A DNA stretch of 33,438 nucleotides from positions 1-33,438 of the IMG/VR virus record IMGVR_UViG_2531839440_000004. The stretch is one strand, 5' to 3'. Position numbers: made by a program. The DNA comes from a virus (lineage: Duplodnaviria; Heunggongvirae; Uroviricota; Caudoviricetes). Below are positions 12,001-18,000 of this stretch, in pieces. Within the stretch, counting starts at the first letter, position 1. Every line of letters starts with the position of its first letter.

Positions 12001-15000
12001 AATCAGATAGAACCGTGTACGGCACTGGCAAAATCCCTTGAGCATGATGCTGAATACACGACGCGAAAAGGTCTGCTGATATACAAAATCTGGAATGAGA
12101 ATTTAACTCGCGACCCTGATTTGGTGATGTTGCGTTCCGGTGAATTTTCTAAATTACCAGTGCGGGTTTCATTTTGTCCGTTCTGTGGTGAAAGTCTGAA
12201 AACGTGGGAGAACAGAAATGAATGAAATTAGAGAAATACCAGTAGTACGTGATGAATATGGCTGCTGGACGCATCCTGAATATGAAAAATTCTGTGATGG
12301 TAGAGAACTTATTTCAACGAAAGAGTTTAACGCCTGGATGGAGGAAAAGGTAATGACTCCAACTTATTGATAGTGTTTTATGTTCAGATAATGCCCGATG
12401 ACTTTGTCATGCAGCTCCACCGATTTTGAGAACGACAGCGACTTCCGTCCCAGCCGTGCCAGGTGCTGCCTCAGATTCAGGTTATGCCGCTCAATTCGCT
12501 GCGTATATCGCTTGCTGATTACGTGCAGCTTTCCCTTCAGGCGGGATTCATACAGCGGCCAGCCATCCGTCATCCATATCACCACGTCAAAGGGTGACAG
12601 CAGGCTCATAAGACGCCCCAGCGTCGCCATAGTGCGTTCACCGAATACGTGCGCAACAACCGTCTTCCGGAGCCTGTCATACGCGTAAAACAGCCAGCGC
12701 TGGCGCGATTTAGCCCCGACATAGCCCCACTGTTCGTCCATTTCCGCGCAGACGATGACGTCACTGCCCGGCTGTATGCGCGAGGTTACCGACTGCGGCC
12801 TGAGTTTTTTAAGTGACGTAAAATCGTGTTGAGGCCAACGCCCATAATGCGGGCTGTTGCCCGGCATCCAACGCCATTCATGGCCATATCAATGATTTTC
12901 TGGTGCGTACCGGGTTGAGAAGCGGTGTAAGTGAACTGCAGTTGCCATGTTTTACGGCAGTGAGAGCAGAGATAGCGCTGATGTCCGGCGGTGCTTTTGC
13001 CGTTACGCACCACCCCGTCAGTAGCTGAACAGGAGGGACAGCTGATAGAAACAGAAGCCACTGGAGCACCTCAAAAACACCATCATACACTAAATCAGTA
13101 AGTTGGCAGCATCACCGGCAGAGTTTAATGAATAGAAAAGAACTTGCCAGAAATGTGATTTATAGTGATTATGGAGTACAGCACCCCGACTTTAATAGGC
13201 TTTCGACGCGATTCCCTAGCGTATCTGCCAGCGTCAGATACTCTGGAGATAATGACTTTTGGGTATTTCGAGGAAGAGTAGCTAATCGCTTTGGTTATGA
13301 ACAATATGGTAAACATAGTGAGGATATTCTTGCTCATCGAGAATATTCAGGGCCTACATTCTGTGCGGGAGATAGAGACATAGAATATTATGCAAACGAG
13401 TATCAAGCCTACAAAGCCAATCCCTCTGGTAACTATAAATTTGGTAGCCCAGAGGTATGGCGTAGGATTGGGCAAAACCATCACATAACTAAGGTTATTG
13501 AGCAACTCGCCACTCTTTACGGGCTTTAAGTTTAACTCGAACAGCTTCACGAAGCTCGCCAACATCCATACTATTGGCGAGTTTTGACCATAAGACGCGT
13601 TTAGGTTTATTTTTCAAATTCTGTAGCTCCCCTACATCACTTAATAGGGAAAGCAATTCATCTTTCCAAAGAAGCATTGTTAAGGAAAGTTTGTCCACTT
13701 GTGGATTCAACTTGCTAGTTCGAATTGTTTTTAAATGGATACCTTGCCGTGCACCTTGCGTAACTTGCTTTATCCCCCACCATGATGGAACTATGCTTAA
13801 AGCATCATAAAGATGGCAATCAGAGACAACCAACGTTACTTTATCCATCACTGATGAGTAATGTTGCACCTGCGCTGGTAATCTGAGCAAGTTATCACTC
13901 TTGCTCTTCAACTCATAACCATGTATAAGCCCATTGATCACTGCTATATCAGCTCTGCTAGCCCCTAGATTCATCGTAAACTCATCAATGATTAGGGTGT
14001 CAGGATCTTTATGATGATCTCTCAGAATCTTGGCATGCACAGCCTTTCTTACATCAATGTCTCTCATACCATAGTTGCGCTTTCATTGACTCTCTCAAGC
14101 CATGATTCTATATCATGGTTCGCATGAATGCCATTTGATATGACCAGTGGTTAAACATTGCACAGAAAAGTGGATGTGTATTTTAACAAAAGCAATGACG
14201 GCTAACCATGTTGGTATGTCGATAAAATGTTTCAACGTAAGCATTATCTGTTCCGCCCTTTCAGACGGCCTCCTGATGTTCTGAGGGTGCAGAATCCCTC
14301 CGGTTAAGGATTTAATAAAAATCGTTTCTGATTTAAATCTTCAGTATTTAGTTGTTAGTCGGTTTATAGCCTTTATGCTTCGGCCTTATTTCTCAGCCAT
14401 ACACAAACCGGGCCATCTTCGGTGTCATGTATTGAACCAATAAACCATCCATTGCCCTCTGGTCGTTCCGGTTCCCATGCAGAAATATCAGCATCACACG
14501 CATCAAGGTCAGCACATCCTTCATCTCTGAAGCAGAGGACGTATTGAAGATTATTTTCCTCCGGTGATGCTGCCAACTTACTGATTTAGTGTATGATGGT
14601 GTTTTTGAGGTGCTCCAGTGGCTTCTGTTTCTATCAGCTGTCCCTCCTGTTCAGCTACTGACGGGGTGGTGCGTAACGGCAAAAGCACCGCCGGACATCA
14701 GCGCTATCTCTGCTCTCACTGCCGTAAAACATGGCAACTGCAGTTCACTTACACCGCTTCTCAACCCGGTACGCACCAGAAAATCATTGATATGGCCATG
14801 AATGGCGTTGGATGCCGGGCAACTGCCCGCATTATGGGCGTTGGCCTCAACACGATTTTACGTCACTTAAAAAACTCAGGCCGCAGTCGGTAACCTCGCG
14901 CATACAGCCGGGCAGTGATGTCATCGTCTGCGCGGAAATGGACGAACAGTGGGGCTATGTCGGGGCTAAATCGCGCCAGCGCTGGCTGTTTTACGCGTAT

Positions 15001-18000
15001 GACAGGCTCCGGAAGACGGTTGTTGCGCACGTATTCGGTGAACGCACTATGGCGACGCTGGGGCGTCTTATGAGCCTGCTGTCACCCTTTGACGTGGTGA
15101 TATGGATGACGGATGGCTGGCCGCTGTATGAATCCCGCCTGAAGGGAAAGCTGCACGTAATCAGCAAGCGATATACGCAGCGAATTGAGCGGCATAACCT
15201 GAATCTGAGGCAGCACCTGGCACGGCTGGGACGGAAGTCGCTGTCGTTCTCAAAATCGGTGGAGCTGCATGACAAAGTCATCGGGCATTATCTGAACATA
15301 AAACACTATCAATAAGTTGGAGTCATTACCAACTCTGCCATAAAATCCACTCGATTCGAGGTTGAGAATATAGACCAACAGAAATATCACTGAGATCTGT
15401 AGGAAATGAACCCCCAGAAAGAATCACTTTTCTGTATTCATTGAGGTGCGCCAGATTGTTTATCAATCCCATTGCCAAAGTATATAGTTCGCCGGAATTA
15501 AGTTTATCCTCGGTTAACTCATCTCTTAAGTCAATAATTATATCAATATTTGATAAAGGAATTCCCAGATGATTAATGTAATGCGTTATTAATTGTGGGT
15601 TAACCAGATCTAACGTGGTTAATCTCAAGCATATTTCATTCTGCATTAATTCATCAATCGCTCTTTTATAGTTAGATGGGCGAGTTGGTGAACTGACAGG
15701 AATAACTCTTATCCCCATATCTCTAACTTGATTAACCGCATTTATTATAGGGTAATGATCTTCAGGAGAAATAAAATGCTCTTCAATTAATAATCCATCA
15801 ATATAAACACCTTGCATATCTGAGCAAGATTTTGAGACTTTCTTTCCGAACTCTATAAGAGTCTCGTTATAACTCTTTAAGGCAATACCTGAATCAGGGT
15901 CAATTGGCACTGGTTCAATTTCGAGTAATGGCAAAATTTTTGATTTCTTTTCAATGGATAGCTGCGATAAAGCTGATAACTCAGAACGTTTCGCTTTCAG
16001 AATAGGAATATATGAAATTGTCATGTTAATACCTTATACAGAATCAATTAACAATTAATGGTTCTTCGGACATTGAAATTTATATCGCAAAAATTGGCAA
16101 ACTCTCCTCGACTACTCACTTGTGGGTATCCTGGCGTAAAAGGAATGACTTGGCAATACCCGGTGTGATCATAAGTCATTGAAAATGATCATTTTTATCA
16201 GTCTTTCTTCCATGATGAATGCTAATGCCATTTGATTTGTTGAGGTGAAAACTGTTAAAAATCAAAACGATGTAATTGAAATGAACGTTCGGTAGCATTC
16301 ACGCTTTAAATGTTTCTTTTGTGCTGATTGGATGAATTTTGGTCACTTATGATGAGAGATGTTGCAGGAAAAGAAGTTGGCATTGATCTATTGGATAGTT
16401 AGAATTGCTGCGGGTGCTTGAGGCTATCTGCCTCAGGCATGAACACCAAAAGGCAGATAGAGAAAAGCCCCAGTTAACATTACGCGTCCTGCAAGACGTT
16501 TAACATTAATCTGAGGCCATATCTATGCGACACATAGAGATTAGCCTCTTACGGACCGAAAGGTCAAGGAGAAGCAGGCTATGAAGCAGCAAAAGGCGAT
16601 GCTAATCGCCCTGATCGTCATCTGTTTAACCGTCATAGTGACGGCACTGGTAACGAGGAAAGACCTCTGCGAGGTACGAATCCGAACCGGCCAGACGGAG
16701 GTCGCTGTCTTCACAGCTTACGAACCTGAGGAGTAAGAGACCAGGCGAGGGAGAAATCCCTCGCCACCTCTCATGTGTCAGGCATCCTCAACGCACCCGC
16801 ACTAAACCCGCTTCGGCGGGTTTTTTGTTGCGTGCTGAATGCGCAGGGTGAAAAATAACCATATATTTGATTATATACACAACAAAAAATAAAAGTCATT
16901 GTACCTGCACATTAAATAATCAAATATACAGCGTGAAATAAATATTTTTCAGATTAATATTTTTGTCTCTATGTGGATATAACCGTTTGTACTTATAAAC
17001 TCGGAGGCATCGTGGAAAAAATAAAGAAACTATTTAGTTGCAAATACGCAGTCATACGTCGTGATGACCTGTCAGTTATAGTCGAAATGGATTACTTCCC
17101 TGAACCCCCAAAATCAATGATGTATCGTAATGGTCGAAAGGCAATTTTTTTACCGATGAGGGTAAGTGACATTATGGGAAATGATAAACTGCTGGATGAA
17201 TTGCGAGTCAGAGCATCCTGTTAGTATTGGCATTAATTCTGGTATACTACATAACGGGCTGAACACCCATTCTACTGCGCCAGCGGAGAACTACGATGGC
17301 GCATATACAACTGGTCAAACAAACCTCTTCCGGATTACTTCTCCCGGCGACGCCGGAGAGTTGCGATTTTTTGCATCAAATCAAAATAGGTGAGTGGATA
17401 CACGCAGACTTTAAGCGTGTGCGTAACTACGCATTCCACAAGCGTTTTTTCAAACTCCTGCAACTGGGATTCGATTACTGGGCTCCGGTCGGTGGGGCGA
17501 TCACGCCTCGCGAACGAAAACTGGTATCAGGCTTCGTTGATTACCTGTGCGAATCAGTAGGTCGGGAACACACTCCAGCCCTGAGTGATGCCGCAGAGCA
17601 ATACCTTAATACAGTTGCGACATGCAGAACCCGGGATACGGCATTGCTAAAGTCGTTTGACGCTTTCCGCGAGTGGGTAACCATTCAGGCCGGATTTTAC
17701 ACCGAGCATATTTATCCTGATGGTAGTCGTGGGCGCAGGGCAAAATCTATCGCATTTGCGAACATGGACGAAACCGAGTTTCAGCAGGTTTATAAATCTG
17801 TACTGAATGTGCTGTGGAACTGGATCCTGTTCCGTAAATTTTCCTCTCCGGAGGAAGTCGAAAATGTGGCCGCGCAGTTACTGGAGTTTGCGTAATGGTG
17901 GATTTACGTAAAGCGGCGCGGGGGCAGATGTGCACCGTCAGAATTCCTGGCTACTGCAATCACAATCCCGAAACTTCTGTGCTGGCGCATTACAGGCTGG

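Follow-up and report, generated by a model that had tools for sequence, protein, structure and literature searches.

The locus treated here raises the question of what a small AT-rich insert in a lambdoid prophage was before the insertion sequence IS1 broke it, and what it would do where it is still whole. The insert lies at 13117-16024 of a 33,438-nucleotide (nt) stretch of tailed-phage DNA, positions 1 to 33,438 of the IMG/VR record IMGVR_UViG_2531839440_000004 (hereafter the window), with the replication genes on one side and the nin/Q-like genes on the other, and its GC content of 34-44% stands against about 50% in its flanks; an initial sequence-only reading of this DNA had likewise noted its position and its AT-richness. 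The finding is a known, annotated family pair, here in broken form: a Beta-family gene and a cII-like partner gene, i.e., the gop-less and toxin-less core of the gop-beta-cII locus of phage P4. Our best explanation of the whole, to which we would give a probability of about 60%, is that this is an IS1-inactivated, mobile two-gene module carried as a “moron” by a Rac-like lambdoid prophage, and that the intact module is anti-phage.

IS1 insertions, an inversion and a split gene

The damage is framed by two IS1 copies, IS1-A (12349-13116, minus strand) and IS1-B (14563-15330, plus strand), which, by open reading frame (ORF) listing and direct reading, lie in opposite orientation and differ at 2 positions. 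Everything expected of IS1 is present, namely a length of 768 bp, both terminal inverted repeats, the insA/insB ORFs and a 9-bp target duplication, and homologous copies are annotated as “IS1-like element IS1A family transposase”. The two 9-bp flanks of one copy differ from each other; they pair with flanks of the other copy as reverse complements, with GGAGGAAAA (12340-12348) the reverse complement of TTTTCCTCC (14554-14562), and GGCAGAGTT (13117-13125) the reverse complement of AACTCTGCC (15331-15339). Such a crosswise arrangement is what remains when two IS1 insertions have each duplicated their target and the DNA between them, here the 1.45-kb segment 13117-14562 with an IS1 copy on either side, has then been inverted. 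The inversion arose either by recombination between the IS1 copies or by intramolecular replicative transposition of a single IS1, and the sequence fits both equally. A direct view of it came from BLAST comparison with the intact locus L001 of Escherichia coli strain B4103-1, in which 2720-6519 corresponds to window 8551-12348 and 7942-9438 to window 15323-16821, while the segment between, 6511-7956, runs backwards as window 14562 to 13117.

When the inversion and the insertion were undone, a single gene emerged. The reverse complement of 15331-16024 (minus strand; codons 1-231 plus 1 nt, with the AACTCTGCC copy abutting IS1-B), joined to 13126-13529 (plus strand, inverted relative to the 5' part; the rest of codon 232 to codon 365 and the stop), gives 1098 nt in frame that encode 365 amino acids. 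The IS1 insertion point is therefore codon 232, and the junction, where EWILWQS is followed by LMNRKELARN, aligns without gaps to intact homologues. The proposal of a single gene of about 365 residues, split by IS1 and an inversion, was thus borne out by the target duplications, the reading frame, the comparison with L001 and 100% identity to three E. coli loci. The two Beta pieces had been placed at 15326-16024 and 13117-13529; both exist, but 15326-15330 belongs to IS1 and 13117-13125 is the duplicated target copy. The second insertion struck an upstream hypothetical gene of the prophage, whose 5' part (12218-12348, plus strand, the last 9 nt being the GGAGGAAAA copy) is split by IS1-A from a 3' part now at 14373-14553 on the minus strand, beside the TTTTCCTCC copy. 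Rejoined, 12218-12348 and the reverse complement of 14373-14553 form an in-frame ORF of 103 amino acids that matches an intact 312-nt coding sequence (WP_001353219.1) in L001.

Between these fragments the cII-like gene survives as the intact ORF of 190 amino acids at 13495-14067 on the minus strand, exactly where it had been placed. Its 3' end overlaps that of Beta in antisense by 35 nt (13495-13529, both strands), the overlap encoding the C-termini EQLATLYGL and KEWRVAQ, each followed by its stop. The AT-rich intergenic region upstream of it (14068-14372) was carried along in the inversion and contains one sigma-70-like site (14134 to 14105, minus strand), in itself weak evidence. In the window a full-length Beta product is no longer possible and the cII-like gene is untouched. 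With its larger gene broken apart by IS1 and the inversion, the pair almost certainly does not work in this strain.

A Beta-family protein and a nuclease-fold partner

The assignment of the larger protein to the Beta family is firm: the reconstructed 365 residues score 178.6 bits against Pfam Beta_protein (PF14350; cut-off 27), with residues 5-356 covering profile positions 1-341 of 342. A structure model predicts a TIM (beta/alpha)8 barrel, which superposes on TIM barrels, and the conserved charged residues of the family (D76, R115, R134, D165, R223, D246 and R269) fall at or just past the C-terminal ends of the predicted barrel strands. It is at these ends of the strands that the active sites of TIM barrels sit. 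Among defence databases the best matches were full-length ones to the PADLOC PD-Lambda-2_C models, at 1.7e-41 (residues 4-362 on profile positions 6-354 of 374) and 5e-38, and the PADLOC “beta” model matched residues 4-40 only, at 1.5e-4. The further suggestion that the protein is sce7725-like did not hold, as NCBIfam NF033831 gave 12.3 bits (cut-off 60) and touched only residues 5-39. The same model found no match in 10 other Beta partners of sce7726-type genes, P4 beta included.

The smaller protein had been described as sce7726-like, and this assignment was sound. It matches NCBIfam sce7726 (NF033832) at 191.1 bits (cut-off 70; 1.6e-56), with residues 1-184 on profile positions 1-183 of 184, and the PADLOC cll model at 2.4e-28. 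The window therefore holds a full-length sce7726 member whose partner is not sce7725, a departure from the sce7725/sce7726 pair. The local Pfam copy gave no family for it, and PF26915 (Phage_P4_cII) is the precomputed assignment of every homologue listed, including the 99%-identical P0001. The acidic/ExK motif noticed at the outset proved to be an E...D...ExK motif, with E29, D40, E52 and K54 invariant in 42 homologues, and the modelled structure combines this catalytic-type motif with a predicted PD-(D/E)xK restriction-endonuclease-like fold, followed by a C-terminal helical domain. The closest known proteins are the PD-(D/E)xK nucleases 3dnx (SPO1766), the nuclease domain of Can2, NucS and the type II restriction endonucleases, from which the cII-like protein is set apart by that C-terminal helical domain; it has no sequence-level match to any solved structure. 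The family is large, with about 3,460 clusters at 50% identity among 1.84 billion representatives.

The precedent that had been named, P4 gop-beta-cII, was upheld by pairwise BLASTP, which aligned P4 beta with the window Beta over the full length (23% identity, E 8e-9) and P4 cII with the cII-like protein (28% identity, E 2e-17), such that the window proteins are distant homologues of the two P4 proteins. Both loci also reside on mobile phage-derived elements. It had been supposed that the P4 genes are co-directional and that convergence set the window apart; this was mistaken, because in P4 (NC_001609) gop (247-648) and beta (651-1718) lie on the plus strand and cII (1746-2540) on the minus strand, so that beta and cII converge there as in the window, and convergence is the rule in the family. 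The real differences are that P4 has a 27-nt gap with a terminator between beta and cII where the window has the 35-nt overlap, that cII is 264 amino acids long in P4 and 190 in the window, and that the window site is a lambdoid prophage and not the P4 hotspot.

Two anti-phage systems give these homologies their interest. The gop-beta-cII locus makes cells resistant to lambda and P1, with gop being toxic when beta is missing (PMC9122126), and its trigger is the phage accessory gene orf184, in response to which it kills the cell (bioRxiv 10.1101/2023.04.06.535777). PD-lambda-2, from E. coli ECOR42 (Vassallo et al. 2022), consists of a HigB-like protein A, an Xre-peptidase B and a Beta-like protein C, the last of which is required for defence and dispensable for neutralising the toxin (PMC9519451). 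The pair had been called uncharacterised, which is true of the two-gene form itself but not of Beta, whose homologues belong to both of these validated systems (PMC9122126, PMC9519451). In other bacteria, natural HigB/Xre-M78/Beta operons related to PD-lambda-2 converge on a cII-like gene as the window Beta does; HigB and Xre-M78, present in PD-lambda-2, are absent from the window. Searches of the window by tblastn returned no gop (P4 Gop as query against the whole window, E > 3) and no HigB or Xre-M78 (queries from an acidobacterial locus, L005, E > 1), and upstream of Beta there are only ORFs of 40-43 amino acids, with none of at least 60. Lacking all three, the window belongs to neither three-gene system; it holds the Beta/cII core that is common to both, standing alone.

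Intact copies and the reach of the convergent pair

The reconstructed 1705-nt module was searched for in 5,426 complete E. coli genomes and was found at 95% identity or more in 93 of them, at 99% or more in 92, and at 100% in three, including B4103-1. Intact homologues, for which the sequence-only reading had proposed a search, do exist: 92 of the 93 module loci are uninterrupted, and about 1.7% of complete E. coli genomes have the intact gop-less pair in Rac-like prophages. In RefSeq the E. coli copies are named “beta family protein” (WP_001594014.1) and “sce7726 family protein” (WP_001204665.1), and phage Rac-SA53 (KU052037) has the module at 99.8% DNA identity under the labels “beta” and “CII phage-like protein”. 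These copies share with the window the prophage position and the convergent, overlapping 3' ends (by 35 nt in B4103-1 and 41 nt in Rac-SA53) and differ in being unbroken, with neither the IS1 split nor the partial inversion of the window copy. The exact IS1/Beta junction of the window was absent from the 5,426 genomes, and the DNA may therefore come from an IS1-rich relative, Shigella for instance. An independent IS1 insertion in E. coli PEC209 (L002, 4544-6417) lies inside Beta at a different codon, with no inversion and with the cII-like gene intact.

A further IS1, with an 8-bp duplication, separates the upstream gene from the cII-like gene in Rac-SA53 (L003, 5075-5840). The idea that such recurrent hits reflect selection against the module was set aside as unsupported, given the 92 uninterrupted copies. 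IS1 prefers AT-rich DNA, and this preference is enough to account for IS1 hits at an AT-rich locus. A second, diverged Beta/cII pair, with a cII-like protein 54% identical to that of the window, occurs on the E. coli contig JAKYQU010000047 (L008, 3134-4763), in another lambdoid prophage where it takes up a different accessory site, flanked by the lysis genes and the terminase gene Nu1.

That the two genes belong together, which had been posed as a point to check, was addressed by a survey in which one genome per species was scanned with a cII-like alignment, the best 80 of 250 loci were kept, and the ORFs called in them were searched with hidden Markov models from our own alignments. The 80 loci are spread over Proteobacteria, Firmicutes, Myxococcota, Acidobacteria, Chloroflexi, Nitrospira, Melainabacteria and Patescibacteria. 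In the 78 with enough sequence, adjacency was nearly universal: a Beta gene lies immediately downstream of the cII-like gene, on the opposite strand, in 72. The stop-defined 3' ends overlap in 70 of these 72, by 4-134 nt, and the overlap length is 2 mod 3 in 67 of the 70 (53 of 56 after removal of near-duplicates), the phase of the 35-nt overlap of the window as well. Because so many pairs share one phase, it must have been inherited and not reinvented, and the convergent overlapping arrangement is ancestral to the family. Across loci the pairwise identities of the Beta and cII-like proteins are correlated (Pearson 0.83, Spearman 0.53). The PGAP annotations of plasmids list both genes under the cII-sized match, as the same overlapping pair, and in Gordonia phage Powerball (L090, 2438-4250) the Beta-like gp33 and the “exonuclease” gp32, which is cII-like by hhalign (4.5e-51), form a convergent pair whose 89-nt overlap has the phase of the window overlap and which has the integrase on one side and a HicAB toxin-antitoxin system on the other. 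No E. coli proteins were among the homologues retrieved with a Stenotrophomonas Beta protein as query.

What varies is the DNA upstream of Beta. The closest enterobacterial relatives, like the window, have no gene there; at least 15 loci carry Xre-M78, in several cases with HigB or DUF6932 before it; and other loci have unrelated proteins of 160-290 amino acids. The acidobacterial locus L005 has a full HigB, Xre-M78 and Beta operon that converges on cII beside a restriction-modification system. In four Obscuribacterales/Melainabacteria loci (L077, 6223-8367; L079, 4057-6195; L085, 6744-8885; L088, 3888-6029) the cII-like gene faces not Beta but a gene for a protein of about 713 amino acids with DUF4388 and DUF4384 matches, the 3' ends overlapping convergently in L077, L079 and L085 and an ORF lying between the genes in L088. 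This DUF4388/DUF4384 protein may be an alternative partner of the cII-like protein.

The remainder of the window identifies the carrier of the module as a Rac/Qin-like cryptic lambdoid prophage, based on a gene for RalA (1557-1735, plus strand), the small RNA antitoxin of RalR, one for a DicF-like small RNA (7275-7326, minus strand), and a pair of threonine and glycine transfer RNA genes (19857-20010, plus strand). Next to Beta is a hok/sok type I toxin-antitoxin system (Rfam sok match at 16412-16583, hokD ORF at 16581-16736), so that two accessory inserts adjoin each other in the interval from the replication region to the nin/Q region. The window contains four near-identical IS1 copies (7783-8550, 12349-13116, 14563-15330 and 18349-19116). 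A clean 9-bp duplication, AAAGCTGAC, belongs to that at 18349-19116. That at 7783-8550 has none and coincides with the missing equivalent of L001 1059-2719, which contains helix-turn-helix repressor, cro-like and ydaT genes; this suggests that the immunity region was lost through an IS1-mediated deletion.

What the intact pair would do

Our preferred explanation is that the intact pair would act as a prophage-borne anti-phage module, by superinfection exclusion or abortive infection. The cII-like nuclease would be the effector and the TIM barrel of Beta a sensor or regulator that licenses it, with expression of the two genes perhaps coupled by the antisense 3' overlap; the toxin cassettes added before Beta in other lineages (gop; HigB with Xre-M78; DUF6932 with Xre-M78) would make use of the same core. 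A role in defence is favoured by the anti-phage activity of gop-beta-cII and PD-lambda-2, by the sites the pair occupies, next to hok/sok in the window, between lysis genes and Nu1 in the contig pair L008, between integrase and HicAB in Powerball and beside restriction-modification in L005, and by its sporadic distribution. Several points weigh against this explanation. The TIM-barrel matches of Beta are generic and give no substrate, the nuclease activity of the cII-like protein is a prediction from its fold and motif, and a regulatory role for the overlap is conjectural; the promoter and terminator scan likewise found sites no more frequent than in shuffled sequence. From the cloning coordinates, the PD-lambda-2 clone ends 396 bp past Beta, too short for a full cII-like gene, which means that in at least one system defence that depends on Beta can dispense with cII. 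The genetic definition of P4 cII by Ghisotti et al. in 1990 reportedly rested on a clear-plaque or lysogeny phenotype and not on nuclease activity, and literature searches by family name brought up unrelated TGF-beta and importin papers but no paper on the two-gene form.

A bolder proposition, which we regard as possible and clearly tentative, is that the Beta/cII-like pair is an ancient, autonomous two-gene immune core in which a TIM-barrel enzyme or sensor controls a PD-(D/E)xK nuclease. The fixed-phase overlap, seen from Proteobacteria, Firmicutes and Patescibacteria to actinobacteriophages, would set the product ratio via convergent transcription or an RNA duplex, and the three-gene systems would be this core plus interchangeable toxin cassettes.

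The alternative that fares best, unlikely though we consider it, is a type II-like toxin-antitoxin or addiction module, with the cII-like nuclease a constitutive toxin, Beta its antitoxin, and stabilisation of the prophage, not defence, its benefit. The very tight linkage of two overlapping genes and the hok/sok neighbour are in keeping with it, as is P4, where beta neutralises the toxicity of gop and the locus has been described as toxin-antitoxin-like (PMC9122126; bioRxiv 10.1101/2023.04.06.535777). A freed toxin should be lethal, however, and Beta has been knocked out by IS1 twice independently, in the window and in PEC209, with the cII-like gene and its upstream region kept, which argues against cII as a Beta-dependent toxin, unless neutralising N-terminal fragments of Beta persist or cII is unexpressed in these strains. 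Nor is the Beta-like protein of PD-lambda-2 the antitoxin of that system (PMC9519451), and a convergent gene order is atypical of type II toxin-antitoxin operons.

Quite unlikely, in our estimation, is a role confined to the prophage itself, with the cII-like protein binding DNA to regulate lysogeny or gene expression, Beta an accessory, and immunity no part of their function. It would explain the name of P4 cII, said to derive from the clear-plaque or lysogeny phenotype; the ancestral direction of the cII-like gene is that of the early-right operon, and the helical C-terminal domain could bind DNA. Against these stand the E, D and ExK residues, whose invariance across phyla argues for catalysis over binding alone, the presence of the pair on plasmids and chromosomes outside any phage and beside defence-type cassettes, and the phage resistance conferred by the whole P4 locus (PMC9122126).

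It is hardly probable that the insert is a DNA-repair or metabolic one of benefit to the host, combining an MmcB-like repair nuclease with a TIM-barrel enzyme whose substrate is a small molecule or damaged DNA. One database source does name a homologue “DNA repair protein MmcB-like protein”, and the conserved charged residues of Beta are placed as an active site would be, but the pair occurs sporadically and in connection with mobile elements, relatives are accompanied by HigB, Xre-M78 and gop cassettes, and for homologous systems an anti-phage phenotype has been validated (PMC9122126, PMC9519451). Last, and very improbable, is that the inversion, as distinct from the IS1 insertions, came about in assembly through a mis-join across identical 768-bp repeats: four near-identical IS1 copies in the window and a junction missing from all 5,426 E. 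coli genomes would allow for it, but the reciprocal exchange of target duplications is the exact product of a real IS1-mediated inversion, and the biological conclusion would be unchanged, since Beta is IS1-interrupted even without the inversion.

With the anti-phage module thus retained as the best explanation, the window copy taken alone is ordinary, a dead pair in a decaying, IS1-riddled prophage. Its wider relevance is that gop-beta-cII and PD-lambda-2, both validated yet mechanistically unexplained, have a Beta protein in common, and that in the survey Beta is almost always locked to a convergent, overlapping gene of cII-like nuclease fold, with variable cassettes upstream. The gop-less two-gene form of Rac-like prophages is the simplest version in which the roles of Beta and cII can be tested, and the natural Beta knock-outs that retain cII already suggest that cII does not act as a free-running toxin. 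Of the by-products, the architecture itself is of greatest interest: an ancient antisense overlap of fixed phase, and modular cassettes upstream of Beta.

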